Sequence record: NZ_CP069608.1
DNA from: a plasmid
Length of the DNA: 64,000 nt
Strand: one strand, 5' to 3'
In this document: positions 41,967 through 60,974 of the stretch, one piece after another
Numbering within the stretch: the first letter of the stretch is position 1
Layout: every line of letters begins with the position of its first letter
Program-made: the position numbers and the translations under genes
The notes under the pieces: model-generated
The model's database searches: none
What the model saw: only the letters and a program-made list of their open reading frames with translations
Told to the model about the DNA's origin: nothing

Positions 41967-43556
41967 CTATTCAGGTTTATTGTTTGCATTCGGAGCTGGT
42001 GTGAAAGAAGGTTTAAAATTCTTGTATTTTACTTCTGTAACCATTCCAGCAGAAGCATGATGTAAATCATGACAGTGAAACATCCAGTTTCCAGGATTGT
42101 CAGCCTTGAATGCTACAACGTATTCTTCACCTGGTTTAACATTTAGTGTATCTTTCATTAGTGGTGAACCTTCTATTGTCTTTCCGTTTTTACTCAACAC
42201 TTGAAAGAAATGTCCATGTAAATGCATTGGATGATCAGCTGATTTAGATGTGTTTTTCAACGTTACTTTAACTAAATCACCTTCTTTTACATTTAAAGGT
42301 TCAGTATTAGGATAGGTTCTATTGTTAATCGTATAAACCATGCTATTATCTTTCATGGCTGTACCAAGATTCATTTTATATTCAACATCATATTTACTAT
42401 CAAGAGAAAATTCACTTTTTGTAGTTTTACCATATTTAGTGATATCTACATTTGGTAAAGATTCTTCTGGATTTAGTTTATCATTATCTTTCTTTGAGTT
42501 ATCATAAACGATTTTAGCAACCATATTTTTAGCAGCATCGGTATCATCATGAGATTCAATATATGATGTACCAGGGTTATTAGCTTTGAATACTAAATCG
42601 TATCGTTCACCTGGAGAAACTGTCACCGTTTGATCTTTTATAGTAGCAGGATTATTGATTGGTTGCCCATCTGTTGAGAGAATTTTAAATTCATATCCAT
42701 GTAGGTGTATCTTATGAGAGATATATCCTGCATTGACTAAGCGAATTTTTACTGTATCTCCTTCAGTAACTTTTAGGGTTTCCATATTATTTTCACTTTT
42801 TCCATTAATGGTATAAAGATCATACATACTCATATCATCTTGCATATCCATATTCATATTCATTCCATCCATGCTTTCGGTTGAGTTATCTGTATCATTC
42901 TTATTTTCTTCACTTGTCATGGATCCATGGTCCATACCTTCCATGCTACTCTCACCAGACGAAATCCATTCATCTAAAACAAGTGTATAATCTTTATCTA
43001 CTTTTTCTTCATTTTTTCCTTCTATAATCAGCGTTCCATATAAACCTTTGTCTATTTGATTGACGCTATCCTGATGTGAATGATACCAATATGTTCCCGG
43101 AACAGAAGCTGTAAATTCATAAGTGAATGTTTTACCTGGCTGTACAGCATTCATAGTGACTCCAGGAATCCCATCTTGACTATTTGGAACAGGAAGTCCA
43201 TGCCAGTGGATTGTTACAGGTTCAGATAATTCATTTTTTAAGTTGATTTTAACCTTATCTCCTTGTTTGACTCGAATTTGGGATCCAGGGACAGAACCAT
43301 CATATGTCCAAACAGGTAATTTCGTTCCATTCCTAAAATCATGTGTAGCTTCTTTAGCAGTTAGAGTGAATTCCTTTCCTATCTTTACTTGTGTTGTTCG
43401 AGTAGAAGGGAATTTTTCTTTTTTACTTTGTTCTCCCTTGTTTGTATTATCCATGTCAGACATATCATGCCCTTTCATACTGTCTTCACTATTAGAGCAA
43501 GCAACTCCAGTCACAACTAACAATACTAAAATTAAAGTAAGACATAACTTTTTCAC
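41967..43556 (-). CDS. Lipoprotein multicopper oxidase (CueO/CopA-type) with Met/Asp-rich insert
   Basis: Lipobox LVVTGVACS. Copper-ligand motifs HWHGL, HSHQD, HPMHLHGH and HCHDLHHASAGM. Met-rich segment MEGMDHGSM…MDGMNMNMDMQDDMSMYD. Confidence 0.85.
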   Translation of the reverse strand: MKKLCLTLILVLLVVTGVACSNSEDSMKGHDMSDMDNTNKGEQSKKEKFPSTRTTQVKIGKEFTLTAKEATHDFRNGTKLPVWTYDGSVPGSQIRVKQGDKVKINLKNELSEPVTIHWHGLPVPNSQDGIPGVTMNAVQPGKTFTYEFTASVPGTYWYHSHQDSVNQIDKGLYGTLIIEGKNEEKVDKDYTLVLDEWISSGESSMEGMDHGSMTSEENKNDTDNSTESMDGMNMNMDMQDDMSMYDLYTINGKSENNMETLKVTEGDTVKIRLVNAGYISHKIHLHGYEFKILSTDGQPINNPATIKDQTVTVSPGERYDLVFKANNPGTSYIESHDDTDAAKNMVAKIVYDNSKKDNDKLNPEESLPNVDITKYGKTTKSEFSLDSKYDVEYKMNLGTAMKDNSMVYTINNRTYPNTEPLNVKEGDLVKVTLKNTSKSADHPMHLHGHFFQVLSKNGKTIEGSPLMKDTLNVKPGEEYVVAFKADNPGNWMFHCHDLHHASAGMVTEVKYKNFKPSFTPAPNANNKPE

Positions 43557-43751
43557 TACAGCACCCCCATATTAATTTAAATATGTCTACAATGTAATTT
43601 ATAATTGTGCAGAATGTTTGCAGATACTGTAAATAATTAATGGCTTACGAAATTTGTCTAAAGATAATTTTGAATTATTACCCAATCTGCACACTTTCTT
43701 CACATATTTTTTCTAAAATTTGTTGAAGGCTAAGTTAAAGGACGTGAAAAC

Positions 43752-45128
43752 ATGAATAGACTCTCATTAAAACTTGGCTTATTGTTTTTAGCTTTCATTC
43801 TATTGATTGAGGTTGGCTTATTTTTTTATCTATATACTGGGCTAGCTGGCACGAGAATTTCAGAGGAATTAGAAAGTTTAAGACTACGAGGGAACAGTCA
43901 TCGTGAGGTATTAGAGAAACACCATGATTCTGCTACCCTAAGCCATGTCGCTTTGATGGAATCAGAGGCAGAGACAGATGTAATTATTACAGATGAAGAT
44001 GGAAAGATTGTACGGACTTCTAGTCCTTTAGTAAAAGGAGCTAGAGAAGCTGTAGAACAATGGCAAGGCTATTCTCTTAGGTATAAAGGGGAAATTATGC
44101 AAGGGGATTGGAAAAACAAACCCTATATTGCGACTGCCTCTCCCATTAGACTAAACCAAAAAAACGCCGGAACTGTGTACATGTTTGAAAATACTAAAGA
44201 TATACAAGACATGATAGCTAGGCTTCAACACCATTTTTATATAGTTGGAGTTATTTCAGTGTTATTTTCAATTATCACTGTTTTTGCGCTTTCTAAATTT
44301 ATAACACTCCCTCTTATAAGAATGAAACAAGCAACTCAAAAGCTTAGTCAAGGAGATTTTTCTGTAAAGCTGGGTGCACATTCAAGAGATGAATTGGGCC
44401 AGTTAGGAACATCTATTCAAACCCTTGCTAATGAACTACATCGTTTAAAGGAAGAACGTAACGAATTTTTAAGTAGCATATCACATGAACTACAAACCCC
44501 CCTTATGTACTTAAAAGGGTATGCCGATGTAGCTAAACGCCAATCAAACAGTGAAGTGGAAAGAAATAAATACCTTAATATCATTGAAGAAGAGGCACAA
44601 AGGTTATCTCAACTAGTTAAAGATCTATTTCAACTTGCTCAACTTGATCAACATACATTTTTAATTCAAAAACAGAATGTCAAATTATATTCCTATTTAC
44701 ATCATATAATTCAGCATTTTGATTTGGTCTTAAAAGAAAAGGATATTCAACTGCATTTAAATTGCCCACAAGAAATTGAGGTGAATATTGACCCTGAAAG
44801 ATTCCAGCAAGTTGTTGTTAACTTGTTAGATAATGCATTGAAGTATTCTGACAATGGAACCGAAATTTTAATAATAGTGCGAGAACTACCTAAAAAAGTT
44901 ACGATTACCTTTAAAGATCAAGGAATAGGAATTCCTTCGACCGATCTTCCTTATGTCTTTGATAAATTGTATAGAGTAGAAAAATCGCGCTCAAGGAAAA
45001 GTGGAGGTTATGGTTTAGGATTATCTATTGTAAAAGAAATTGTGGAATCTCATGGAGGCGCAGTCACAATAGAAAGTGGGGTAGGAAAAGGCACTATGGT
45101 TGAAATCTTGTTAAGAGAGGATGTTTAG
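43752..45128 (+). CDS. Sensor histidine kinase (divergent from the multicopper oxidase gene)
   Basis: Two TMs, HAMP, H-box SISHELQTPL and HATPase_c motifs (DNALKYS, GGYGLGLSI). Confidence 0.85.
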   Translation: MNRLSLKLGLLFLAFILLIEVGLFFYLYTGLAGTRISEELESLRLRGNSHREVLEKHHDSATLSHVALMESEAETDVIITDEDGKIVRTSSPLVKGAREAVEQWQGYSLRYKGEIMQGDWKNKPYIATASPIRLNQKNAGTVYMFENTKDIQDMIARLQHHFYIVGVISVLFSIITVFALSKFITLPLIRMKQATQKLSQGDFSVKLGAHSRDELGQLGTSIQTLANELHRLKEERNEFLSSISHELQTPLMYLKGYADVAKRQSNSEVERNKYLNIIEEEAQRLSQLVKDLFQLAQLDQHTFLIQKQNVKLYSYLHHIIQHFDLVLKEKDIQLHLNCPQEIEVNIDPERFQQVVVNLLDNALKYSDNGTEILIIVRELPKKVTITFKDQGIGIPSTDLPYVFDKLYRVEKSRSRKSGGYGLGLSIVKEIVESHGGAVTIESGVGKGTMVEILLREDV

Positions 45129-45810
45129 AATGCCAACTATTTTGTTAGTTGATGATGAATCAAGGATGTTAGATCTACTTGAACTTTATCTTACTCCAAA
45201 TGGTTTTATATGTATTAAATTTGATTCTGGTATTGAGGCATTAAACTATCTAGAAGAAGGAAATGAAGCTGATTTAATGCTCTTGGATATTATGATGCCC
45301 GATAAAGATGGATGGGAGATATGTCATGAAGTTAGAAGTAGTTCCAAAATTCCAGTAATAATGCTAACCGCACGTAATCAAACCATTGATATAATAAAGG
45401 GTTTGAATACAGGAGCTGATGATTATATCGTTAAACCCTTTAGTGAAGGAGAACTGATTGCTCGCCTTAGAGCAGTATTAAGGAGAGTTTCAACAGAAAA
45501 TGAGGAGATTAACTATAAAGGATTATTATGGAGTCGAGAAAATCACCTGTTAAAATATGAAGATCAGGAAATACAAGTGACTCCAAAAGAATTTAAATTA
45601 GTAGGATTGCTCTTACAATACCCAAATAGAGTGTTTAGTCGTGAAGATTTATTAACCTCAGTATGGGGATACGATGCTGAAATTGAAGGAAGAACAATTG
45701 ATTCACATGTGCGAAATGTAAGAGATAAACTACGTAAAGCAAACTTTCCTGTAGATGACCACCTTCAAACTGTGTGGGGGCTAGGCTATAAATGGGTAGA
45801 CAGCAATTAA
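45121..45810 (+). CDS. OmpR-family response regulator
   Basis: Receiver domain (DDE…D…K) plus winged-helix C-terminus. Overlaps the HK stop. The HK→RR gene order is unusual. Confidence 0.85.
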   Translation: MFRMPTILLVDDESRMLDLLELYLTPNGFICIKFDSGIEALNYLEEGNEADLMLLDIMMPDKDGWEICHEVRSSSKIPVIMLTARNQTIDIIKGLNTGADDYIVKPFSEGELIARLRAVLRRVSTENEEINYKGLLWSRENHLLKYEDQEIQVTPKEFKLVGLLLQYPNRVFSREDLLTSVWGYDAEIEGRTIDSHVRNVRDKLRKANFPVDDHLQTVWGLGYKWVDSN

Positions 45811-46358
45811 AGCAAGTTGTTGTTGAGTGGTTATCTACCAATGAACTTATAGCCATATTAATTAGTCTATCCCTTAACATTGTCATAAGTATTTTAGGCA
45901 TTGTACCTAGTGTATTTCTTACAGCTGCAAACTTGAAAATATTTGGTTTTTGGGAAGGGACTATCATTTCATTTTTAGGAGAAGTTATAGGAACAAGTGT
46001 ATCTTTTTGGTTATATAAAAAGGGATTTAAATCAGTTTTAAGAAACAAGACGCAGAATCAACCTAAACTAGATAAACTCTTATCAACTACAGGAAAAGAT
46101 GCTTTTTCTCTAGTTATAGGCCTGCGCTTATTACCTTTTACACCTTCTGGATTGGTTACATTCCTTGCTGCTGTTGGAAATATGAGCTTTTCAATATTTT
46201 TCTTAGCCAGTACATTAGGAAAAATCCCTGCCATAGTCTTAGAATCCTATTCAACATATCAAGTGGTGAACTTAACGTTAGAAGGAAAAGTAATTTTAGC
46301 AGGGTTAGCGTTGATTTTAATTCTTTATGCCGTAAGGCGTAAAAAAACGAACAAATAA
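45792..46358 (+). CDS. TVP38/TMEM64 (DedA/SNARE-associated) family membrane protein
   Basis: VTT-domain motif GLRLLPFTPSGLVTFLAAV. Confidence 0.7.
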   Translation: MGRQQLKQVVVEWLSTNELIAILISLSLNIVISILGIVPSVFLTAANLKIFGFWEGTIISFLGEVIGTSVSFWLYKKGFKSVLRNKTQNQPKLDKLLSTTGKDAFSLVIGLRLLPFTPSGLVTFLAAVGNMSFSIFFLASTLGKIPAIVLESYSTYQVVNLTLEGKVILAGLALILILYAVRRKKTNK

Positions 46359-46462
46359 AATATTATTGCTCCCTAGTCTAACAGAATAACTCTCACAATC
46401 TTTTTTGCTTATTGCAAGGGTATTCATTAATTTTTTTTAAAAAAGGGCATTTAACCCTTCGC

Positions 46463-46484
46463 ATAGGGTACAGGGGTACCGTAT
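46463..46484. promoter_or_regulatory. Putative CsoR operator overlapping the -10 of the csoR-copZA promoter
   Basis: GC-rich pseudo-palindrome ATAGGGTACAGGGGTACCGTAT abutting TATAAT. Resembles the B. subtilis CsoR operator class (TACCC…GGGGTA). Confidence 0.35.
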
Positions 46485-49580: not shown

Positions 49581-49745
49581 AATGAAAAAATGGATTGTTT
49601 CAGCTGTTTTATATCTCCTTATTGTTATAGCTGCTTATGCTATTTGGGCGAGTTTCAATGAGAGTCCAAAGAATGAACACCAAAATCATCAATCGATCTC
49701 TTATCCTACGCCGATTGAAAAAAGTTATAACATTAGGGTGCGATA
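49581..49745 (+). CDS. Small membrane protein (54 aa) immediately downstream of copA
   Basis: AAGGAG RBS. One TM. Below the ORF-track size cut-off. Confidence 0.3.
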
Positions 49746-49748
49746 GAG

Positions 49749-50078
49749 ATGGATATGCAGGGAGTACAAAAACATGTGTTAATCTGTAATGGAAAAAGCT
49801 GCGTCAAGAATGGTGGAGAACAAGTCGCAGAAGCGATTCGTGATGAGATAAAGAAAAGTGGTTGTACTAAATTTATTCATACAACTAAGACGTTATGTAA
49901 CGGTCAGTGTAAAAATGGAGCTATTACAATTCTGTATCCTGATGGTATCTGGTATAAAGAAATGGACGAAGACTCTGGAAGGAAGCTTATTAAAGAGATA
50001 AACACTCCCATTCCTTTAGAGCAAAAGATCCTATTGGACTATAAAAACCACCAATTTACTGAAAAGAAAACAGAATAG
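49749..50078 (+). CDS. Thioredoxin-like [2Fe-2S] ferredoxin-family protein
   Basis: C-x4-C…C-x3-C spacing (CNGKSC…CNGQC) typical of thioredoxin-like 2Fe-2S ferredoxins. Confidence 0.5.
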   Translation: MDMQGVQKHVLICNGKSCVKNGGEQVAEAIRDEIKKSGCTKFIHTTKTLCNGQCKNGAITILYPDGIWYKEMDEDSGRKLIKEINTPIPLEQKILLDYKNHQFTEKKTE

Positions 50079-50313: not shown

Positions 50314-50406
50314 ATTTATTTATGCTAAAGAAATAAAGTAATAGGAAAGTTTCTCATTTATACCATTGTTTTATTAAAGAGCGAATTCTATTGCTCAGAA
50401 AGAGGG

Positions 50407-50979
50407 ATGAAAATGAAAAAACAACTTTTTATTCTTGGAGTAGCAACAATTATAGGGCTGAGTGGTTGTGGAAATAATTCCAGCAATGATGATCAATCAA
50501 GTAATAAAAAGGAGTCAAATCAATCAGAGATGGATCACTCCAAGATGAATCATTCCGGTTCAAGCGAGGTTCCTGAAGGTTTACAAGAAGCGAAGAACCC
50601 AACATATAAGTTGGGAAGCGAAGCAACTATTAAAGCAGATCACATGAAAGGTATGAACGGTGCTAAAGCGACAATTGTTGGGGCTTATGATACTACAGTT
50701 TATACAGTTTCTTATACACCAACTACTGGTGGAGAAAAAGTAGCAAATCATAAATGGGTCATTCAAGAAGAAATTAAGGACGCTGATGATAAAACGTTAA
50801 AGCCAGGAACTGAAGTTACTCTAGAAGCAGATCACATGGAAGGTATGAAAGGCGCAAAAGCAACAATTGACTCAGCTGAAAAAACTACTGTATATATGGT
50901 TGATTACACACCAACTACTGGTGGAGAAAAGGTAACAAATCATAAATGGGTTACAGAAAATGAACTTTCTGCTAAATAA
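50407..50979 (+). CDS. YdhK/DUF1541-family lipoprotein with two tandem domains
   Basis: Lipobox LSGCG. Two repeats of ADHM(K/E)GM(N/K)GAKATI…TTVY(T/M)V(S/D)YTPTTGGEKV(A/T)NHKWV. His/Met-rich N-terminal linker. Confidence 0.65.
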   Translation: MKMKKQLFILGVATIIGLSGCGNNSSNDDQSSNKKESNQSEMDHSKMNHSGSSEVPEGLQEAKNPTYKLGSEATIKADHMKGMNGAKATIVGAYDTTVYTVSYTPTTGGEKVANHKWVIQEEIKDADDKTLKPGTEVTLEADHMEGMKGAKATIDSAEKTTVYMVDYTPTTGGEKVTNHKWVTENELSAK

Positions 50980-51145
50980 AGCAAGCCTAGAGATTATTCA
51001 ATAATGCAATTAAAATATATTACGTAGGTAATACCTCTGAAACATATAGATTTCAGAGGTATTCTTTTCACCCTATATATTTTTAATTTAAAAATAAAAG
51101 GAGGAATAGCCATTTGCCATTTCTCCCTTTATAGGTAGCAATTTT

Positions 51146-51475
51146 TTAAGATGCTAATTTCCTACATTCTTCTGCGCATTTCAAACAAGCATCTGCGCAC
51201 TTTTGACAGTGTTCATGGTCATGTTTTTTACACACGTTTCCACATGCTTCACAAATTTGAGCGCATGCCTGAGCTAATTCAGAGACAAAGGGTGTTCCTC
51301 TCCCTAAAGCTTGTTCCAAATACGCACAAATATCTGCGCACTCACGGTCAAGGCGAATACATTCAACCATCATATTTACATTTTCTTCTTTTAAACATGC
51401 ATCATAACAATGATTACATGCAGTCATACATTCATGTAACGTTTGAATAACAAATTGATAGTTTTCATGTGACAA
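51146..51475 (-). CDS. Csp3-like Cys-rich four-helix-bundle copper-storage protein (DUF326)
   Basis: 109 aa with 18 Cys in CxxxC/CxxC arrays on predicted helices, like B. subtilis YhjQ/Csp3. TTG start after AGGAGG. Confidence 0.65.
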   Translation of the reverse strand: MSHENYQFVIQTLHECMTACNHCYDACLKEENVNMMVECIRLDRECADICAYLEQALGRGTPFVSELAQACAQICEACGNVCKKHDHEHCQKCADACLKCAEECRKLAS

Positions 51476-51599
51476 GTTAAAATTCCTCCTCTAAATTTGC
51501 GTTCTCTCTATTACAATAGACTAACATTCGGTTTATTAAACATAATAAGATATATTGTTATATCTTTTACATATTCATAAAATCTCATAGGGAGGTTAT

Positions 51600-51938
51600 T
51601 TAGCTGACACTTGCCATAACACGGCATTCTCTGGCACAGTCTAAACACATTTGAGCACACATCTGTGATTGTTGATCAGAAAACCTTGAACATTCATAGG
51701 CACATGCCTTACAAGTATAAGCACAGAATTTGCAAGCGTTTCTCATAGACTTGCTGTTGCGCGATACTAATTGCGTACATAATATACAAATATCACAACA
51801 ATCTCTAAGTAATTGGATTTGTTGAACTCTGGCATGTACATCAGGACTATGCAGAGAGAAATTTATTGTTTGTTCACACATTATCACGCAGTCTTGAAGT
51901 ATTTTCATCATATTTTGAAACATATTTACATCCATCAT
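51600..51938 (-). CDS. Second Csp3-like Cys-rich four-helix-bundle protein (paralog)
   Basis: Start refined to MMDVN after GGGGGA. About 112 aa with 17 Cys in similar arrays. Confidence 0.6.
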   Translation of the reverse strand: MMDVNMFQNMMKILQDCVIMCEQTINFSLHSPDVHARVQQIQLLRDCCDICILCTQLVSRNSKSMRNACKFCAYTCKACAYECSRFSDQQSQMCAQMCLDCARECRVMASVS

Positions 51939-52201
51939 GCTTTTTCCCCCTATTTGGTTCATTTAACACGATATTTTATGTAGATACTCTTCTCCATAGA
52001 ATCCTATCAAAACGTTAGAGGGTCTAAAATTTGTTCTTCACCAAACCACGGAGGTAAAAACTCTAACAAAACAACCAATATACAAGCAATTTTCTGGTCA
52101 ACTTAATCCCTTCTCTTCGAAATGTTGTTTCACATCTAAGTTTGTTTCTTTTATACTTTAAAACATAGAGATATGTAAATTGAAGGCGGTGAAAGTAACA
52201 T

Positions 52202-52606
52202 ATGAGTGAAAACCATAATGAATTACTATCAAATATCTTAGGACCTCTTGAATTAGAAGTAATGAAAGTTCTTTGGTCTAAGAAAGAAGCAACTGTTCAG
52301 GAAGTATTAGCAGATTTAAATAAACAAAATGAGTATGCTTACACCACAATCATGACGATTATGAATCGTTTAGATAAAAAGAGAATTCTTACACGTAATA
52401 AGGTAGGAAAGGGATATCAATATAAAGCTCGTTATAATCAGGATGAGCTTGTTCAACATACTTCATCTAAGAAGGTCGAACAACTTCTTGGAAACTATGG
52501 TGATGTTGCTATTGCACAGTTTGTCGATGCTGTTGGCCATAATCCAGATCAGCTAAATAAATTGAAACAACTTATTCAAAATTTAGAGAATGGGGAAGAA
52601 TCGTGA
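52202..52606 (+). CDS. BlaI/MecI/CopY-family winged-helix transcriptional repressor
   Basis: The N-terminal ELEVMKVLW…TVQEV…YAYTTIMTIMNRLDKKRIL matches the Penicillinase_R domain. It has no C-terminal CxC motif, so it is not CopY-type. Overlaps the next gene (ATGA). Confidence 0.8.
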   Translation: MSENHNELLSNILGPLELEVMKVLWSKKEATVQEVLADLNKQNEYAYTTIMTIMNRLDKKRILTRNKVGKGYQYKARYNQDELVQHTSSKKVEQLLGNYGDVAIAQFVDAVGHNPDQLNKLKQLIQNLENGEES

Positions 52607-53460
52607 TGCAATTATCTCGTCAGTATAGCATTTACATTGCATTTCTAGTTAGTATTACAGGTTCCTTTTCTCTCTGTTTTTTCGCCTATCACCATAAAGG
52701 GGAAAGTTTTTGGGATGGTATGCTTATGTGTTGTAATAGTCATTCGTGGGAACAAGTATTCAAGGTATTGGTTATCTTACTAGCGGTCTTATGTATATTA
52801 TTTATCGTTTATTTTGTGGGAATTGTTCAAAAGACAAAACAATTTCTTTCTACCCTAATCCCTTATAAAGTGAGAGGATTTTTTTCTCAAGAGATAGAAA
52901 CATTTCAAAAAAAATATTCAATACAAATTCATATTATCAATGATAAACGACCTATAGCTTTTACCTATGGGTTTGTTTTTCCTCAAATTATTATAAGTAC
53001 AGGGCTCCTTCAATTGTTAGATTCAGATGAGATAGAAGCTGTTTTAGAACATGAATATTGTCACTATAAAAATAAGGATCCTTTTAAATTGTCATTATAT
53101 AAATGTTTAGCACGCCTATTCTTTTTCTTGCCCATAACTGAAAAAATATTGAAACGCTATGTCACTCAAAAAGAATTAGCTGCAGATGCTTTTGCAATTG
53201 AACAAGTTGGGCTAAAACCAGTTGCTTCAGCTCTATATAAATTAATGACATATTCTTCACCTCTATCTTTCTCAATAGCTCATTTTCAAAATAATGATCT
53301 CAAAGATGTTCGTATTGAATTTCTTTTGACAGGTACACATACCAGGGCTTCTCTGAGCAAAAAAGAATGGACAGTCTCGGTTCTACATCTTATTTTTATT
53401 ACGCTGATAGCAGGATGTGTGTCATATTTGTGGCAAAATATATCTTCTATGATTTTATAA
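52603..53460 (+). CDS. BlaR1/MecR1-like M56 zinc metalloprotease with no sensor domain
   Basis: Four TMs. HExxH (LEHEYCHY). 285 aa, versus about 585 aa for BlaR1, so there is no extracellular PBP-like domain. Confidence 0.75.
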   Translation: MMQLSRQYSIYIAFLVSITGSFSLCFFAYHHKGESFWDGMLMCCNSHSWEQVFKVLVILLAVLCILFIVYFVGIVQKTKQFLSTLIPYKVRGFFSQEIETFQKKYSIQIHIINDKRPIAFTYGFVFPQIIISTGLLQLLDSDEIEAVLEHEYCHYKNKDPFKLSLYKCLARLFFFLPITEKILKRYVTQKELAADAFAIEQVGLKPVASALYKLMTYSSPLSFSIAHFQNNDLKDVRIEFLLTGTHTRASLSKKEWTVSVLHLIFITLIAGCVSYLWQNISSMIL

Positions 53461-53527
53461 TTACTACATAATTGTAGTAATGCATTGACTCCACTTTCAC
53501 CATCTACTACAATTGTGTAGTAGATGG
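53461..53527 (+). promoter_or_regulatory. Promoter with two BlaI-type operators (TACTACA-N4-TGTAGTA)
   Basis: Operator 1 is TTACTACATAATTGTAGTAA (53461-53480). -35 TTGACT (53485-53490), a 17-nt spacer and -10 TACAAT (53508-53513). Operator 2 is CCATCTACTACAATTGTGTAGTAGATGG (53500-53527) and overlaps the -10. The TACA/TGTA dyads match the BlaI/MecI recognition core. Confidence 0.7.
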
Positions 53528-53577
53528 TGTGTTCTATAGACTCCATCTCTATTCCATGTAAGAAGGAGAGGAAAAAC

Positions 53578-53817
53578 ATGAAAATAAAAAAAACAGTTGC
53601 GGGTTTATCCTTTGTTGCCCTAATGGCAGTTGGAGGAACAGTTTTTGCAGCTAGTCCAGCAGATCATAAACCTATGAGTGAAAAAGATTGTATGGAAATG
53701 AGTAAGAAAGACTGTATGAAGATGATGAAAAATATGAGTGAAGAGGATTGTATGGAAATGATGAAAGGCATGAGTAAAAAAGATTGTATGAAAATGATGA
53801 AAGAGATGAAAAAATAA
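53578..53817 (+). CDS. Secreted 79-aa Met/Cys-rich tandem-repeat peptide
   Basis: GAAGGAG RBS. Signal peptide (…VFAASPA). Four repeats: EKDCMEMSK, KDCMKMMK, EEDCMEMMK and KKDCMKMMK. A terminator follows. Confidence 0.6.
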   Translation: MKIKKTVAGLSFVALMAVGGTVFAASPADHKPMSEKDCMEMSKKDCMKMMKNMSEEDCMEMMKGMSKKDCMKMMKEMKK

Positions 53818-53879
53818 AGCTTTAGTGTAAGAAACCTATTATATCTAATATTAAAGTTATCATACTACTAATCTAAGAC

Positions 53880-53915
53880 AAGAGAGCCAACTTTTAATGT
53901 TGGCTTTTTTATTTC
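53880..53915 (+). terminator. Rho-independent terminator after the repeat-peptide gene
   Basis: AGCCAAC TTTTAAT GTTGGCT followed by TTTTTTATTT. Confidence 0.6.
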
Positions 53916-54170
53916 ATGTTAAATAACTTCCAATGGCGAAATTTCAACCATATTGAGAGGCTTTTTAATACTGTCTTGGTGTCATTTAATGATACTTTAT
54001 CGAACATGGTTAGCATATGGATCATATACTTCTGTAAGCAATAAAATACTTACTGATAAAATTATTGTTCCTACTAATAACAACCCATTACTTACAATTT
54101 TGTTGTTCTTTTTACCTAAAAAGAGGCCAAAAGGTTTTATAAACTAATAAGAATACCAGGAATCAAAAAG

Positions 54171-54207
54171 AAAGGAGCCTGATTATAATGAATTCAGGCT
54201 CCTTTAA
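54171..54207. terminator. Terminator at the 3' end of the ars operon
   Basis: GGAGCCTGA…TCAGGCTCC hairpin flanked by A- and T-runs. Confidence 0.55.
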
Positions 54208-54492
54208 TTAACAACAGCTATTATCCATTCCTACTAATACAAAGCCTGACCCCTGAGGACTTTCTTGTACATCAAGCGTAAGACCTTCAGTTGAAGTTAA
54301 TACTGTGTTTTCAATCGCTACTTGAATACCGTTGATTTCTTGTACTGTATCATTTTCAGCTGGTACATCTAACGATAAACCTATTTGAGGACCACAACAT
54401 CCAGCACCTTCAGAATAGAAACGGATACCTTTTGCACCTTGTTTTGCGAATACGTCATCTAACATTTTTTTTGCTTCATTTGTGATATTCAT
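54208..54492 (-). CDS. HesB/IscA-fold small protein with two vicinal Cys pairs (ars operon accessory)
   Basis: IscA-like layout (GIRFYSEGAGCCGPQ…) but with GCCG and a C-terminal SCC in place of the canonical Cys ligands. Last gene of the ars transcription unit. Confidence 0.55.
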   Translation of the reverse strand: MNITNEAKKMLDDVFAKQGAKGIRFYSEGAGCCGPQIGLSLDVPAENDTVQEINGIQVAIENTVLTSTEGLTLDVQESPQGSGFVLVGMDNSCC

Positions 54493-54526
54493 GAAATCTC
54501 TCCCTCTCTTTACCTTTGTTTACGGT

Positions 54527-54955
54527 TTAAGCTTCTGGAAATAGACGTTGAAGTGAAGCTTTCATTTCTGGTTTTACGTTAATTTTAGCACGAGCTGCTT
54601 TGGCTTTCTCTTCTGCCTCTGCAATTGTATCTACTTCGCCTAGTGCTAGTAGTGTTCCAATTGCAACCGTACCTGTACGATTACTTCCTCCTGCACAATG
54701 GAAGTAAATCTTTTTTCCCTCTTCATACGATTTTACGACTTCATTAATTGCATTTTGAATAGACTCATCTTGGTTTTCTGCATCATCCACAATTGGTGTA
54801 TGAACGCGTACTTCTGGAGCATCGTGTTCTAATGCTTCTGCACGTAAGTCATAAATGACATCTGCTTTATCATTTTCCATCATTTCTTTTACATCGGATG
54901 CTCCACCGATGAAAATACGATCGTCAATTAATGCTTGATAATTCTTGTTGCTCAT
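54527..54955 (-). CDS. Dual-specificity/Tyr phosphatase-fold protein with CX5R P-loop (ars operon accessory)
   Basis: HCAGGSNRTG active-site loop. 142 aa. Confidence 0.65.
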   Translation of the reverse strand: MSNKNYQALIDDRIFIGGASDVKEMMENDKADVIYDLRAEALEHDAPEVRVHTPIVDDAENQDESIQNAINEVVKSYEEGKKIYFHCAGGSNRTGTVAIGTLLALGEVDTIAEAEEKAKAARAKINVKPEMKASLQRLFPEA

Positions 54956-55019
54956 TTTTTACACCTCTATAATTTATAATGTTTAGATTATCATTGAAAC
55001 GTACTATCTTCTATGTTTA

Positions 55020-56795
55020 CTATTGTTGACTATATTCTTTTACCTTCTCATAACCAATTTTCTCTTCTGGTTGCCATGGAATAATCGCACAATTAGAAGT
55101 TAGTTCTTCACTTACTTTTTTAATCCATGCTGCTTCAGCTTGAGCTCTTCCTTTTAAGACAGGATCTACTGTGTCAGTCGCATATAAACTCTGATTAACC
55201 ACCCACCATTTCGGGGTAATTTCAGCTCTTTTCAAGTCTACTTGAAGACGACTTGCTTCTAATACAGGTGTAGCCTCAGCAAGTGTAACAATAACCACAC
55301 TGGTTTCTTTTGGGTTACGTAAGCGTGGTAATAGTTTTTTGACGCTTTCAGGAACTTCACCGGTTGAACGTTCTAATTCCTTATGATAAGACTGTGTAGC
55401 ATCAAGTAAGAGCAACGTATGACCTGTTGGTGCTGTATCAATGACCACAATTTCATCATCTGATTTAGCTACAACATCGGCAAATGCACGAAATACAGCA
55501 ATTTCTTCCGTACATGGAGAATTCAAATCTTCTTGAATGTACGCAATTCCATCTTCATCAAGTTCCTCACTTGCCTTTGACAATACTTCGTTTTTATAAG
55601 CTTCTACTTCAGCCTTAGGATCAATTCGACTAATACTCAATAGCTCCTGGGCTTCACTGTTACTAAAGACAAAATCTAAATGTGCCGCAGGATCTGTCGT
55701 CGTTAAATGAACACGATGACCTTTTTCAACTAGTCCTACTGCAATCGCAGATGCTACCGTTGTTTTCCCAACGCCACCTTTACCCATCGTAAAAATGACT
55801 TTGGTTCCATTTGAAGAGAAATCTTCTACCACATTTTTAAATACAGAAAGATTTTGTTGAGACAAGTCTACATCTTTTATTTCTGTTGCTGGTAACGTAT
55901 ACGATTTAAATAAATGGCGAAGAGGAGAAATTCCTGTTAAAGGATAAGATACGTAAGGTACTGAATACATAACCATTTGTTTTAGTTCTTTAGGCATTCT
56001 CTTTAAGGCCTCTTGTTGTCGATTATAGAAAGCCGTTGAAATTTTATCCTCTTTTACATGTTGCTTCATTAAGCCATTTACAAGTAAGTTTTGATTTGAA
56101 ATACCAATCTCTTTTAATTCCTTTGAAGCTCGATTCGCTTCTTCTAGGGAAGAAACATCAGGACGTGCTACTAACATTAGAGTTGTTTGCTCTGGGTTTG
56201 ATAAAGCCTCTACCGTTTTAGCGTACAAACCTTTCTTTTCGTCTAGTCCTGATAAAGGCCCTAAACAAGAAGCTCCGTGTGTGCTTTCCTCCAAAAAACC
56301 TGTCCAGGCAGTTGGCAACTGTAATAAACGTAGGGTATGCCCTGTTGGGGCTGTATCAAACAGAATGTAATCAAATTGATTAACCATCTCTTCATTTGCT
56401 AATAAGTTCGTGAATTCATCAAATGCAGCAATCTCTACTGTACAAGCTCCAGACAATTGTTCCTCCATAGTAGAAACAACAGAATCAGGAAGCTTTCCAC
56501 GATAAGGTCCTACTACTTTGTCACGGTATGTTTTTGCTGCTTCTTCAGGATCTAAGTTACAAGCGTATAGATTCCTTACATTTGGTATTTCAATTGGTTC
56601 GTTTGTCAGTTCCACTTCGAATACGTCTTGTAAATTTGAAGCAGGATCTGTACTGACAATAAGTACTTTGTTGCCTTTATCTGCTAGTGATACAGCTACT
56701 GCACATGCTGTCGATGTTTTTCCAACACCACCTTTACCTGTGAAGAATAAGAAAGGTGTCTGAACAATTTTTTCGGGTTGAAAAGGTTGAAACAT
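55020..56795 (-). CDS. arsA: Arsenite-stimulated ATPase ArsA (two-domain)
   Basis: Two GKGGVGKT P-loops and two DTAPTGHTL signature sequences. 591 aa. Confidence 0.9.
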   Translation of the reverse strand: MFQPFQPEKIVQTPFLFFTGKGGVGKTSTACAVAVSLADKGNKVLIVSTDPASNLQDVFEVELTNEPIEIPNVRNLYACNLDPEEAAKTYRDKVVGPYRGKLPDSVVSTMEEQLSGACTVEIAAFDEFTNLLANEEMVNQFDYILFDTAPTGHTLRLLQLPTAWTGFLEESTHGASCLGPLSGLDEKKGLYAKTVEALSNPEQTTLMLVARPDVSSLEEANRASKELKEIGISNQNLLVNGLMKQHVKEDKISTAFYNRQQEALKRMPKELKQMVMYSVPYVSYPLTGISPLRHLFKSYTLPATEIKDVDLSQQNLSVFKNVVEDFSSNGTKVIFTMGKGGVGKTTVASAIAVGLVEKGHRVHLTTTDPAAHLDFVFSNSEAQELLSISRIDPKAEVEAYKNEVLSKASEELDEDGIAYIQEDLNSPCTEEIAVFRAFADVVAKSDDEIVVIDTAPTGHTLLLLDATQSYHKELERSTGEVPESVKKLLPRLRNPKETSVVIVTLAEATPVLEASRLQVDLKRAEITPKWWVVNQSLYATDTVDPVLKGRAQAEAAWIKKVSEELTSNCAIIPWQPEEKIGYEKVKEYSQQ

Positions 56796-56808
56796 CTCTT
56801 TTGCCTCC

Positions 56809-57177
56809 CTATTTCAGATTGTTTATATTTAATTTAATTGGCGTGCGTGGCTTTTCGCCAATTAACTCCTCTGCTTTAACATCGAACCATTTAGCCAACT
56901 CTTCATTAGTAGGATAGCTCCCTACTTTTTCAACTACTCCATTCACTAGTACCACTGGTAATGCATCAGGGCCTTTGCTCATAAGAATTTTGTTTACTTC
57001 TGCTTGATCAACAAACTTATCCGGCTCGCTGGTTAAGTTATAACGTGTAATATCAAAGCCTTTCTTTTTCAAAGCAAATACAGCAGAAGCTACTCTCGTT
57101 AGCTCTGGATCTACACTTGGACCACAAACACCTGTTGAACAACACATAGCAGGATCAAAAATCTCTACTTTCTTCAT
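56809..57177 (-). CDS. arsD: Arsenic metallochaperone/repressor ArsD
   Basis: FDPAMCCSTGVCG N-terminal motif. Start refined to MKKVEIF after a GGGGA RBS. Confidence 0.85.
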   Translation of the reverse strand: MKKVEIFDPAMCCSTGVCGPSVDPELTRVASAVFALKKKGFDITRYNLTSEPDKFVDQAEVNKILMSKGPDALPVVLVNGVVEKVGSYPTNEELAKWFDVKAEELIGEKPRTPIKLNINNLK

Positions 57178-57294
57178 ATTGTCATCCCCTTTTAGTAAAA
57201 TACAATACCTTAACAACAACTTATAATAATATACTTATATAAAGGGTAAAGAGTAAGCCGAGAGTTATTTTCCCGGCTTATTTGATTTTTATTA

Positions 57295-57717
57295 TTACTT
57301 ACCTGTTTCAGCGAAACGGTTAATGCGCTCACCGATTTCATCACGTACACGTTGGAAGAATGCCCACTTTTCTTCATCTGTTCCTTCTGCTTTTGCTGGG
57401 TCATCAAAGCCCCAGTGTTCACGTTTCACATGAGGTGGTGTCATTGGACATTTATCAGCTGCATCTCCACATAATGTAACAACTAAATCTGCATTATTTA
57501 AGATTTCAGGATCGATAATATCTGATGTTTGATTCGAAATATCAATACCAGCTTCTTTCATTGCTTTTACAGCATTCGGGTTTAAACCATGTGCTTCAAT
57601 CCCTGCACTATATACATTCCACTCATCACTATTTAAATGTTTTTTTGCCCAACCTTCTGCCATTTGACTACGGCAAGAGTTACCTGTACATAAGAAATAA
57701 AGTGTTTTTTTAGACAT
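57295..57717 (-). CDS. arsC: Thioredoxin-coupled arsenate reductase ArsC (LMW-PTP fold)
   Basis: [15 protein letters not shown]-loop with C10, C82 and C89 equivalents. Confidence 0.9.
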
Positions 57718-57741
57718 GTGTAAAATCTCCTTTATGATGTG

Positions 57742-59040
57742 TTATGAAATAATTAGTAACCAAATATATAAACCAACAAGCGTAATAAACAATGTTGGGA
57801 TGGTTAAGATAATACCTGTTTTAAAGTACGTTCCCCATGAAATTTTCACACCTTTGGTTGACAGAACATGAAGCCATAAAAGCGTCGCAAGAGAACCGAT
57901 TGGTGTAATCTTTGGACCTAAATCTGATCCAATAACATTTGCGTAAATAAGTGCTTCTTTAATCGTTCCTGTTGCATGTGTCGCATCAATCGCAAGGGCA
58001 TCAATCATAACAGTTGGCATATTATTCATAATTGATGAAAGAATAGCTGCGATGAATCCCATACCGATAGTGGCTGCAAATAATCCATGATCGGCTGTTG
58101 CTCGAATAACATCGGCTAGTACTTCTGTTAGACCAACATTACGTAGGCCATAAACGACTACATACATACCAATAGAGAAGAAAACGATAGCCCAAGGCGC
58201 GCCTTTTAATACTGTTTTCGTTTCCACTGCTGGACTTTGTCTTGCTAATCCTAAGAAGAAAATAGCAATAATTCCTGCAATAATGGAAACTGGAATATCA
58301 AAGAATTCACCTACAAAATAGCCAAGGACTAAAACAATTAGTACAATTCCTGACAACTTGAACATTTTTTCATCTTTAATTGCCTCAACTGGTTTTGGTA
58401 GATCAGCTACATTGTACTTTTTTGGAATACTTTTTCGGAAATATAGATACAAGACGACTATACTTGCGAAAAGTGCGAATAAATCTGGAACAATCATGCG
58501 TGAAGCAAATTCAGAAAATCGAATACCAAAGAAGTCAGCTGATACGATATTTACTAAGTTACTTACCACAAGTGGTAACGACGTTGTATCCGCAATAAAT
58601 CCACTTGCAATAATAAATGGAAAGACCATTTTATCTTCAAATTTTAACGCTCGTACCATTGCAAGTACGATAGGTGTTAAAATTAAGGCTGCCCCATCAT
58701 TGGCAAATAAGGCTGCCACAACGGCTCCAAGTAGCGAAACATATACAAACATACGAACACCATTGCCACCTGCAGCTCTTGCCATATGCAACGCTGCCCA
58801 TTCAAAGAAACCAATTTCGTCTAAAATTAAGGAAATAATAATAACTGCGATAAATGTGAGGGTCGCATTCCATACAATGCCTGTTACATCCAGAACATCG
58901 TGGAAATCAACGACTCCTGCTAATAAAGCAAGAACTGCTCCTCCACAGGCTGACCAACCGATAGATAAGTTTTTCGGCTGCCAAATAACAAAAACTAATG
59001 TCACTAAAAAGATCAGTGATGCTAGGACAACTGATGTCAA
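57742..59040 (-). CDS. arsB: Arsenite efflux permease ArsB
   Basis: Twelve TMs. Long colinear similarity to E. coli ArsB (VIWQPK…GWSA…GAVLAL…[12 protein letters not shown]…). Confidence 0.9.
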
Positions 59041-59055
59041 TTTTTAAACCTCCAA

Positions 59056-59406
59056 TTACTCACAACAACTAATACGTAGTCCTTGTTTTTCTAACTCTTT
59101 TAAGCGTTCATCTTGACTTGGTACTGATTCAAGTATGCTAAGAACAAACTCATAATACTTACTTTCTTTGTTAAGGGAATAAAAGATCCATTGTCCTTTT
59201 CGTCTTTCCTTAACTAGTTCCACATCTTTTAATTTTCTTAAATGCTGACTAATTGCCGGCTGGCTAGCTTGATAAATGTCAACAAACTCACAGACACAAC
59301 ATTCATTGTTCTCAATTAACTTCATCATAGAAAGCCTAGTCTTATCGCCTAGTAGCTTTAAAATCTGAGCTGCTTTTTCAACTTCAACTATAGTTTTTAC
59401 ACTCAT
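59056..59406 (-). CDS. arsR: ArsR/SmtB-family As(III)-responsive repressor
   Basis: CCVCEF metal-binding motif preceding the HTH (QPAISQHLRKL). Confidence 0.85.
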   Translation of the reverse strand: MSVKTIVEVEKAAQILKLLGDKTRLSMMKLIENNECCVCEFVDIYQASQPAISQHLRKLKDVELVKERRKGQWIFYSLNKESKYYEFVLSILESVPSQDERLKELEKQGLRISCCE

Positions 59407-59622
59407 TCATCGACACCTCCTGATACGTTAAATACATATATAATAATTTGCTTATGTGTTTATGTTATTAATATAATCGTTTTCTTATATATTTTCAACC
59501 GTTTTGTTTAAATAAATTTGAAAAAACAAATCTATTTTATAACTACATCATAAGATGCCTATATTTTGTTTTTATTATGTAAGTAGCACCTTATAAAAAA
59601 GCCTGGATATATGAATGTATAA

Positions 59623-59661
59623 AAAACAGGAATCGGAAAGAATCCCTCCGATTCCTTTATT
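59623..59661 (-). terminator. Terminator after acr3, separating it from arsR
   Basis: AGGAATCGGA…TCCGATTCCT with a T-run on the minus strand. Confidence 0.6.
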
Positions 59662-59667
59662 TATTAT

Positions 59668-60723
59668 CTATCTTTCTTGAGGTTGAAAATATCTCTTTTT
59701 TAACCAAAACGCTGCATTTACAAGGGCAATGAGTGCCGGAACTTCTACAAGAGGTCCAATTACAGCTGCAAATGCGGCTCCTGAATTAATCCCAAATACC
59801 CCAACTGCTACAGCAATGGCCAACTCAAAGTTATTGCCTGACGCAGTAAACGAAAGAGAAGTTGTAACAGAATAACTTGCTCCTGCCCTTTTTCCTAAAT
59901 AAAAAGAAACAAAAAACATCAAGACAAAGTAAATCAAAAGTGGAATAGCAATACGTACAACATCAAGAGGTAATTGAATAATCATATCTCCTTTTAACGA
60001 AAACATAACAATAATCGTAAATAGGAGTGCAATAAGAGTCAAAGGACTAATTTTAGGTACGAGTACACGTTCATACCATTCTTTCCCTTTGATGCCGATA
60101 AAGATAAATCGAGTCAATATACCAGCTAAAAAAGGGATTCCCAAGTAAATGAGAACACTCTTTGCAATCTCACCCATCGTAATATCAATCACAAAGCTTT
60201 CAAGTCCCAACCATTTTGGAATAAGCGTAACGAACAAATACGCATAAACAGAGTAGAAAAAGACTTGAAAAATGGAATTAAGAGCGACTAAACCAGCAGC
60301 ATATTCGCGATCCCCTTTCGCAAGGTCATTCCATACAATAACCATGGCGATACAACGTGCTAGTCCAATTAAAATCAAACCAATCATGTACTCTGGTACA
60401 TCTCTAAGAAAGACAATCGCAAGTAGAAACATGAGAATAGGGCCAATAATCCAGTTTTGCAAAAGTGAAATTCCTAATACTTTTTTGTCTTTAAACACAT
60501 GTCCCATATTTTCGTATCGTACTTTTGCTAATGGTGGGTACATCATCAAAATTAATCCGATTGCTAAAGGAATGGATGTTGTACCTACCTGAAAGTGATT
60601 CAGTCCATCTACGAAGCTGGGAAAAACATAACCTAAACCAATTCCTATAAACATAGCTACAAAAATCCATACAGTTAAATACCGATCTAAAAATGACAGT
60701 TGTTTACTCAATTGTTGATTCAT
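59668..60723 (-). CDS. acr3: ACR3-family arsenite efflux transporter (start uncertain: 60723 or 60780)
   Basis: [14 protein letters not shown]-terminal motif and ten TMs characteristic of ACR3. Distinct from ArsB. Confidence 0.85.
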
Positions 60724-60974
60724 TCCTTGCTCCAACTCCTTTTCAATTTTAGATCCACAGCCTCTACAACCTCCTTTCATTGTTGTACAATCATATAGTT
60801 ATTCACTTATATATTGAGAAATGTATCTATTTATGAATTTTTAAAAATAAACTATACAATTAGATAGCTGCTATATGATCCTTACTAAAAAATCCAACGT
60901 GAAAAAGCCACTTCCTTTCTGTAAAGAAGTAGCTTTCATTCGTTATATAAATAAGACTTTTTTGGACTTTACAC

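Follow-up and report, generated by a model that had tools for sequence, protein, structure and literature searches.

The 64,000-nucleotide stretch of plasmid sequence NZ_CP069608.1 considered here (the window, numbered from its first letter) carries on its minus strand two adjacent open reading frames (ORFs), which we call ORF A and ORF B and which encode small proteins of 109 and 112 amino acids (aa), respectively. Among the window ORFs of at least 90 aa these are the two richest in Cys (14.7% for ORF A and 12.5% for ORF B, against a median of 0.8%). Their 16 and 15 Cys are fewer than the 17–18 each that had been given in an initial annotation of this DNA, whose description of CxxxC/CxxC ladders holds, since the spacing between successive Cys is 3 or 4 throughout both proteins. 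The evidence set out below makes it likely that the two genes, which are probably co-transcribed, encode Csp3-family proteins that store Cu(I) in the cytosol. Their surroundings – csoR, copZ, copA, a gene for a DUF1541/YdhK-like lipoprotein, and genes for a BlaI-like repressor and an M56-like peptidase – are as initially annotated, the window also carries a multicopper oxidase gene, the island holds arsenic resistance genes as well, and the locus is probably a copper/arsenic island on a plasmid of Priestia megaterium.

Translation of ORF B most likely begins at the ATG at 51938, which has a GGGGG ribosome-binding site 7 nucleotides (nt) upstream, while the upstream ATG at 51962 has no such site. 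The latter opens the longest frame (51600–51962) and had been taken as the gene boundary by the initial annotation, which was correct as to the adjacency and the strand of the two ORFs. The 112-aa product is also the gene call in P. megaterium assembly GCA_963966095.1, the window being 99.99% identical to the contig of that assembly. With this start, the divergent intergenic region between ORF B and blaI becomes 263 bp long, not 239 bp as previously given. ORF A starts with a TTG at 51475, preceded by GAGGAGG, and its ortholog on P. megaterium plasmid p9 (NZ_CP059466) has an ATG at the same position. The features of the locus are collected in Table 1.

Table 1. Coordinates of the genes and predicted elements around ORF A and ORF B, in window numbering.
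Feature	Position	Strand	Basis or remark
Multicopper oxidase gene	41967–43556		lipoprotein with Met-rich insert
Intrinsic terminator after ORF A (stem of ~16 pairs, 51094–51132, then U-tract)	51082–51132	−	RNA fold of 50985–51150, z=−4.9
ORF A, classical Csp3	51146–51475	−	PF03860, similarity to B. subtilis Csp3
Spacer between ORF B and ORF A (124 nt), only a weak A/U hairpin	51476–51599	−	RNA fold, z=−1.3
Ribosome-binding site of ORF A, GAGGAGG	51483–51492	−	read from sequence; conserved in plasmid p9
Cassette of 2.65 kb (ORF B, blaI, M56 gene, small secreted Met/Cys-repeat gene)	51557–54202		absent from sister plasmid p9
ORF B, non-classical Csp3-like four-helix bundle	51600–51938	−	5FIG match, AlphaFold2 model, Foldseek, clade invariants
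Ribosome-binding site of ORF B, GGGGG	51946–51950	−	read from sequence; agrees with the 112-aa call
Candidate sigma-K-type −10 element, CATAAAATA	51972–51980	−	predicted; 34 nt upstream of ORF B start
BlaI-like repressor gene, product without Cys	52202–52606	+	PF03965, E=6.7e-29
Short M56-like membrane peptidase gene, HEYCH	52603–53460	+	PF05569, E=3.9e-14
Two perfect 18-nt palindromes, TACTACA-N4-TGTAGTA, 43 bp apart (starts 53462 and 53505)	53462–53522	+	predicted operators
Secreted Met/Cys-repeat protein gene	53578–53817		79 aa, signal peptide

Fold and cysteine register of the two proteins

By its sequence, ORF A is an ordinary classical Csp3 of the YhjQ type, a kind already known, and it adds nothing new. 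It matches DUF326 (PF03860), as anticipated, with 56.9 bits (E=1.5e-15), which is above the gathering score of 20.4, and its best solved relative, at 55% identity, is Csp3 of Bacillus subtilis (BsCsp3, or YhjQ; 5FIG in the apo form and 6WKT with Cu(I)), to which it aligns over residues 8–108 (5FIG, E=1.1e-29). The two proteins have the same length, and all 16 Cys of ORF A align with Cys of BsCsp3, filling 16 of its 19 positions and leaving out Cys8, Cys12 and Cys67 at the closed end of the bundle. Under the definitions of PMC10155185, ORF A shows all of the classical Csp3 features, which are (i) the α3-loop-α4 His motif of the HxxxHxH type (KKHDHEHC, with H84, H86 and H88, the HDHxH of BsCsp3), (ii) the mouth Cys (C27, C39 and C90) and (iii) an Asn or Asp at the interface between core and mouth (D43, matching the Asp of BsCsp3). 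Of its 391 homologs, most of those that carry a source name are annotated as 'four-helix bundle copper-binding protein', and homologs at 65–84% identity are common in Bacillaceae.

ORF B, which is 32% identical to ORF A, is placed in the same family by its match to 5FIG (E=6.4e-10; essentially all of its sequence matches in the PDB are Csp proteins), by a precomputed PF03860.22 match in a protein database and by its predicted fold. The AlphaFold2 model, built from a 29-sequence alignment, has a predicted local distance difference test score of 96.8 and consists of four helices (4–29, 34–59, 65–83 and 89–111). When compared with the PDB using Foldseek, this model has Cu(I)-BsCsp3 6WKT as its best match (template modelling scores 0.89/0.94, root-mean-square deviation 1.2 Å, 104 columns), and each of the top 43 matches is a structure of the Csp family, three of them being fusion constructs with the PA2107 bundle. 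The Cys of ORF B recur with a helical period of 3.5 residues (permutation test, p=0.0006 in helix 3 and p=0.014 in helix 4), and 13 of the 15 coincide with Cys of BsCsp3, while C54 lies at a core position that is Ala in BsCsp3 and C48 adjoins C47. These findings support the assignment of both proteins to the four-helix bundles of the Csp3/DUF326 type, with Cys that face the core. Neither outcome named beforehand as counting against such an assignment (no DUF326/Csp match, or a Cys spacing incompatible with a four-helix-bundle Cu(I) site) is observed, and a ferredoxin or bacteriocin identity is rejected on fold and Cys register.

When the core a/d register is placed by alignment to BsCsp3 (in the numbering of the 112-aa protein), ORF B has six layers, listed here from the closed end to the mouth and in the order α1, α2, α3, α4: M10, V58, C69 and M108 in layer 1; L14, C54, C72 and C105 in layer 2; C17, C51, C76 and C101 in layer 3; C21, C47, C79 and C98 in layer 4; T24, L44, C83 and C94 in layer 5; and S28, Q40, the α3 loop and S91 in layer 6. 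Both ends of the bundle are non-ligating, and the classical mouth features are all replaced: next to Ser28, Gln40 and Ser91 stand at the positions of the α2 and α4 mouth Cys, Leu44 at that of the interface Asp/Asn, and SRFSDQQSQ at that of the His motif, with invariant Arg37 and Asp88 in place of the His loop. Four of the six α1 Cys of BsCsp3 are missing as well. Since it lacks the Cys and His ligands of the mouth, ORF B would be a smaller-capacity, non-classical form of the bundle.

The subclass of RkCsp3 and NmCsp3 (6ZIF, 3LMF; PMC10155185) does not accommodate ORF B either. Members of this subclass, like ORF B, are without the α3-loop-α4 His motif and three of the mouth Cys, and they keep a Cys equivalent to C69 of ORF B at the closed end. 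However, RkCsp3 has a full α1 Cys ladder, a single mouth Cys (Cys30), a conserved His in the α1-α2 loop and a Met at the interface, and binds 17 Cu(I), whereas ORF B has Ser28, Gln40, Leu44 and only two α1 Cys (the diagnostic columns read M, L, C, C, T, S / Q40 / L44, as opposed to C, C, C, C, M, C / H / M in RkCsp3), and the sequence relation between the two is weak (E=5e-5 to 1e-6). Csp1 of Methylosinus trichosporium (5FJD/5FJE), a four-helix bundle with 13 Cys, is similar in Cys number to the core of the ORF B clade, but ORF A and ORF B score only 54 and 21.5 bits against TIGR04401 (Csp1), for which the cut-off is 100, and Foldseek ranks Csp1 below all Csp3 structures. Csp1 and Csp2 are moreover exported, Csp1 by the twin-Arg pathway, whereas the N-termini of ORF A and ORF B (MSHENYQFVIQ and MMDVNMFQNMMKIL, respectively) show neither a twin-Arg motif nor a hydrophobic h-region and, given this absence of a signal peptide, the two proteins are expected to be cytosolic like BsCsp3. 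They differ from BsCsp3 in being probably plasmid-borne, within a resistance island, and in having no adjoining yhjR homolog.

Relatives of ORF B and their distribution

The word-index search of 5.8 billion proteins returned, besides the identical protein, a single relative (49% identity), and an exhaustive phmmer search of 1.84 billion representatives gave 758 matches at E<1e-3, of which 72 at E<1e-10 and none above 51% identity. Among the best 150 representatives, 63 clusters have the ORF B signature, 30 are RkCsp3-like (His/Met in a pair of marker columns) and 24 have Cys in each column of this pair, the RkCsp3-like type separating from the ORF B type. The ORF B-type group was defined by Gln40 and Ser91 only, and Arg37 and Asp88 accompany them in all 63 clusters; Leu44 is found in 60 and each of the 12 core Cys in 58–63. 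Across genome loci, ORF B-type proteins have a median of 12 Cys (range 10–15), and ORF B stands at the top of that range, with two extra core Cys (C54 and C69) and C48 in addition to the 12 of its clade. Half of the members have N-terminal extensions of at least 30 aa, which contain 11% Pro, 8% Met, 6% Tyr and 4% His.

When one genome per species was scanned for the motif LLRDC[AC][DT][IV]C, which was derived from 12 sequences and may bias the taxa found, the yield was 80 loci, all from Bacillota except one metagenome-assembled genome, with 64 ORF B-type genes and 23 Cys-rich genes. Every ORF B-type locus comes from Bacillota, many of them from known endospore-forming genera, and the taxa include Clostridia, Bacilli, Desulfosporosinus, Heliobacterium and Sporomusa, to which two further named members, from Camelliibacillus and Alicyclobacillus, can be added. 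One ORF B-type gene, in Bacillus sp. V3-13 (L080, 5360–5767), is broken into two ORFs and is therefore probably a pseudogene.

Upstream of the clade genes, sigma-K-like promoter elements are enriched: AC-16/17-CATAnnnTA precedes 11 of 64 clade genes and 15 of 878 other genes in the same loci (p=2e-7), and the −10 element alone precedes 25 of 64 and 92 of 878, respectively (p=1e-8), although these statistics ignore the relatedness of the genomes. Such sites typically lie 25–50 nt before the ribosome-binding site. The candidate −10 element of ORF B itself (Table 1) has no matching AC −35 and overlaps TGTAGATACT.

Neighbouring genes vary. Within 8 kb, copA, copZ, csoR or a multicopper oxidase gene is found in 14 of 56 loci (25%) that have only an ORF B-type gene and in 12 of 17 that have only a Cys-rich gene, and clustering of 454 neighbour ORFs gave no dominant partner, the most frequent being a histidine kinase (11 loci), a SHOCT protein (seven) and CopA (six). 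SHOCT-domain small membrane proteins and a Sortilin/BNR-like protein recur by the closest ORF B relatives (L001, 2730–4829; L085, 4445–5845; L004, 3174–4100), and small secreted Cys/Met-rich proteins lie beside the Effusibacillus ORF B-type copy.

Pairing with a Cys-rich Csp3, as seen in the window, recurs in six further loci, where the two genes lie 0.2–7 kb apart (Desulfosporosinus, L014; Oceanirhabdus, L018; two Ornithinibacillus, L052 and L053; Anaerobacillus, L072; Bacillus sp. V3B, L078). These pairs, which consist of a 12-Cys ORF B-type protein and a Csp3 with 19–20 Cys in five further genera, exceed chance placement by far. A low-capacity Csp3 with a high-capacity one only a few kb away is an arrangement shared by Priestia, Desulfosporosinus, Ornithinibacillus, Anaerobacillus and a Bacillus species, which suggests that the two divide the work between them. 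On the tentative proposal given next, the Cys-rich neighbour of the ORF B-type gene in at least five genera might be the partner for loading or unloading.

On sequence grounds, ORF B is therefore a member of a known family that fits neither described Csp3 subclass, and its clade is uncharacterised; it is not described in the Csp papers PMC5171941, PMC9484137 and PMC10155185 (with supplement), and a description elsewhere is possible. As a tentative proposal, to which we attach limited confidence, ORF B would represent a third Csp3 subclass, with a 12-Cys core, a ligand-free mouth (presumably closed by Arg37-Asp88 together with Gln40, Ser91 and Leu44), often Met/His/Tyr/Pro-rich tails, confinement to Bacillota including many endospore formers and, typically, sigma-K-type promoters, and it would function as a spore-associated copper store whose loading or unloading depends on a partner. 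If this were true, the confinement to these taxa and the promoters of sigma-K type would link a second type of Csp3 to sporulation. With conserved non-ligating residues in place of every ligand at the port through which copper enters, this branch also amounts to an experiment of nature on the passage of Cu(I) into and out of Csp3 bundles.

Transcription and origin of the pair

Because the one strong terminator follows ORF A, and the spacer between the genes can form only a weak hairpin (Table 1), ORF B and ORF A are probably co-transcribed, in a message that would begin upstream of ORF B and end at the terminator behind ORF A. An Rfam scan of 50900–54300 for cis-regulatory RNA found nothing near gathering scores. 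The CsoR-type operator pattern TACCC-N-GGGTA has no match, and the shorter ACCC-N-GGGT occurs only at the csoR promoter (46454–46469), at 55201 and at 62587, far from the Csp genes. By eye, a TTTACA-18-TATAAA can be made out at 52179–52150, ~210 nt upstream of ORF B, but we do not rely on it.

Homology to plasmid p9, as detected by blastn, is limited to window positions 50356–51556, which comprise the YdhK gene, ORF A and 81 nt upstream of ORF A, and 54203–60758, which hold the ars genes. What lies between is the cassette of Table 1, and at its position p9 has, between identical flanks, genes for an NAD(P)/FAD oxidoreductase and an ArsR regulator (L003, 10357–12122). The bounds of the cassette relative to p9 indicate that the pair arose by cassette exchange and not by tandem duplication. 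As to the initial description of the genes as tandem paralogs, both are indeed adjacent members of the Csp3 family, but they belong to different subclasses of it and were brought together by the arrival of the cassette; a recent tandem duplication is ruled out by the 32% identity and the cassette boundary. One ORF B relative elsewhere (P0007, in L090) is divergent from an ArsR and oxidoreductase pair.

Possible roles and competing explanations

Csp proteins are homotetramers that bind Cu(I) with high affinity (~1e17 per M). Tetramers would be expected here too, and the core a/d positions, lined by Cys thiolates, would hold chains of Cu(I), with the thiolates as bridging ligands, in both bundles. 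Capacity follows Cys number in characterised Csps, where 13, 18 and 19 Cys bind ~13, 18 and 19.6 Cu(I) (PMC5171941), so ~16 Cu(I) per monomer would be expected for ORF A and ~12–15 for ORF B, with different entry and exit behaviour in the latter. In classical Csp3s, Cu(I) passes in and out via the mouth; since the mouth of ORF B is ligand-free, with a Leu at the interface, its exchange is expected to be altered and possibly partner-dependent. On this island, both proteins would buffer Cu(I) not yet removed by csoR-copZ-copA efflux. Csp3s contest the view that bacteria hold no cytosolic copper pool, and only one physiological function has so far been found for them, that of BsCsp3, which is sigma-K regulated and feeds the spore laccase CotA (PMC9484137).

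Several observations weigh against the reading of the pair as co-transcribed stores that buffer Cu(I) on a resistance island. Against PF03860, ORF B scores only 18.8 bits, just under the gathering score of 20.4. No recognisable copper gene lies within 8 kb in 75% of loci that have only an ORF B-type gene, a scan of the minus strand upstream of ORF B shows no sigma-A promoter at 9/12, there is no CsoR-type or BlaI-type operator upstream of either gene, and ORF A may have its own promoter within the 81 nt conserved with p9. Loss of every mouth ligand could make Cu(I) entry into ORF B slow or dependent on a partner. Finally, Csp3 of B. subtilis is dispensable for copper tolerance (PMC9484137), so a detoxifying role is not guaranteed.

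It is possible, although on the whole doubtful, that ORF B-type proteins, perhaps even the whole pair, are produced late in the mother cell under sigma-K and supply Cu(I) to spore components instead of protecting growing cells. Such a role would suit the restriction of ORF B-type loci in the scan to Bacillota with many endospore-forming genera, the sigma-K motif upstream of clade genes, the precedent of BsCsp3, the Pro/Met/Tyr/His-rich tails of half of the clade and the presence of CATAAAATA at a short distance from ORF B. However, the motif statistics and the taxa found are subject to the two biases mentioned above, the window copy lacks the AC −35, its immediate setting is a resistance island, and the island's own multicopper oxidase (a lipoprotein, exported unfolded, whose insert is rich in Met) belongs to the extracytoplasmic resistance enzymes rather than being a CotA-like coat enzyme and client. 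For this copy we give slightly more weight to buffering on a resistance island, and for the clade as a whole to a sporulation role. Improbable, by comparison, is that the divergent BlaI-like/M56 copper sensor controls ORF B (with ORF A) as its output and makes up a single functional unit with it. ORF B does share its cassette with blaI-M56, the copper-dependent BlaI/M56 pair PetR/PetP is known in Synechocystis, and of the seven closest ORF B relatives with examined surroundings three, the window copy among them, have a BlaI/M56 pair no more than 2.5 kb away, the other two being P0003, which is 48% identical and divergent from a BlaI(-M56) operon on a metagenome contig, and a Paenibacillus lautus plasmid copy 2.5 kb away; this proximity is a residual, unexplained association. 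Yet the only TACTACA-N4-TGTAGTA sites in the window, allowing up to three mismatches, are the two palindromes of Table 1, which flank the TTGACT-17-TACAAT promoter of the secreted Met/Cys-repeat gene, and the region between ORF B and blaI (51939–52201) contains neither such an operator nor the generic TACA-N4-TGTA. The half-site reported there, TGTAGATACT at 51979–51988, does exist, but it is single and imperfect and no operator accompanies it. Plasmids of Peribacillus asahii and Bacillus sp. HNR-4 (L091 and L092) have the double operator too, at an identical spacing of 43 bp; blaI-M56 and the small secreted gene are present there, a Csp gene is not, and none lies upstream of blaI. In all three plasmids the double operator precedes only the Met/Cys-repeat gene. 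Moreover, none of the 56 loci with only an ORF B-type gene has BlaI or M56 within 8 kb, L014 (which also has a Cys-rich Csp) has only a weak BlaI-like match 5 kb away, the BlaI of L004 and L085 is only distantly related to that of the window (E ~1e-17), and L004, L085 and L042, with BlaI lineages that rely on other boxes, do not show the operator pattern of the window. With operators before the small gene only, and no operator-like site upstream of ORF B, the co-regulation of ORF B with blaI that had been suggested is not supported.

Very unlikely, in our view, is that the bundles serve something other than Cu(I), be it Cd, Zn, Hg or As(III), thiol redox buffering or an Fe-S scaffold. What could be cited for it is that the island also has arsenic resistance genes, that a DUF326 protein appears among cadmium-binding proteins in a proteomics study (PMC6727835), that two close ORF B relatives adjoin peroxiredoxin or TlpA-type genes and that the name 'ferredoxin' has been given to one ORF A homolog in the database; but the metal is Cu(I) in every metal-bound family structure among the matches listed, the Cys are in the register of a Csp ladder and not in a ferredoxin CxxCxxC...CP motif, and the immediate neighbours are copper genes. 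Least credible of all, to the point of being negligible, is that these are chance ORFs, or that ORF B is a decayed, non-functional copy, as might be imagined from its place under the Pfam cut-off, from its having only two homologs in the word index and from the one relative split into two ORFs. Against this stand the ribosome-binding sites of both genes, the 72 ORF B relatives at E<1e-10 with their invariant residues, the high-confidence predicted fold, and the identical copy called as a gene in the P. megaterium assembly.

The neighbouring module deserves mention in its own right. PetR/PetP of Synechocystis consists of a Cys-free BlaI-family repressor and a short M56 protease without a penicillin-binding domain, in a copper context, and the BlaI-like/M56 pair of the window matches this description; nothing points to control of ORF A or ORF B by it, its operators preceding the gene for the secreted Met/Cys-repeat protein. 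This protein, which has four DCMxMMK repeats, has seven homologs in 5.8 billion proteins, all hypothetical and from Bacillaceae, and belongs to no Pfam or NCBIfam family. The triad of BlaI-like protein, M56 protein (with HExxH and a 'CCN' motif in its N-terminal region) and DCMxMMK-repeat secreted protein is conserved in the window (52202–53817), L091 (4296–5983) and L092 (4161–5774), three metal-resistance plasmids of Bacillaceae. It looks like a PetR/PetP-style proteolytic copper switch over an extracellular Met/Cys copper binder, and is maybe more novel than the Csp pair. An ACATA-GAGA-TATGT palindrome at 52163–52176, unrelated to the double operator, lies just 3' of the predicted blaI −10 (TATACT, ending at 52157).

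Elsewhere on the island, the multicopper oxidase gene adjoins a histidine kinase/response regulator pair and a gene for a VTT/DedA membrane protein (41967–46358), and near Csp genes of Cohnella and Paenibacillus (L039–L042) this oxidase/kinase/VTT-DedA set is found again. After copA, at 49582–50078, come genes for a 54-aa membrane peptide and a thioredoxin-like [2Fe-2S] ferredoxin-domain protein, which occupy the same position on p9.

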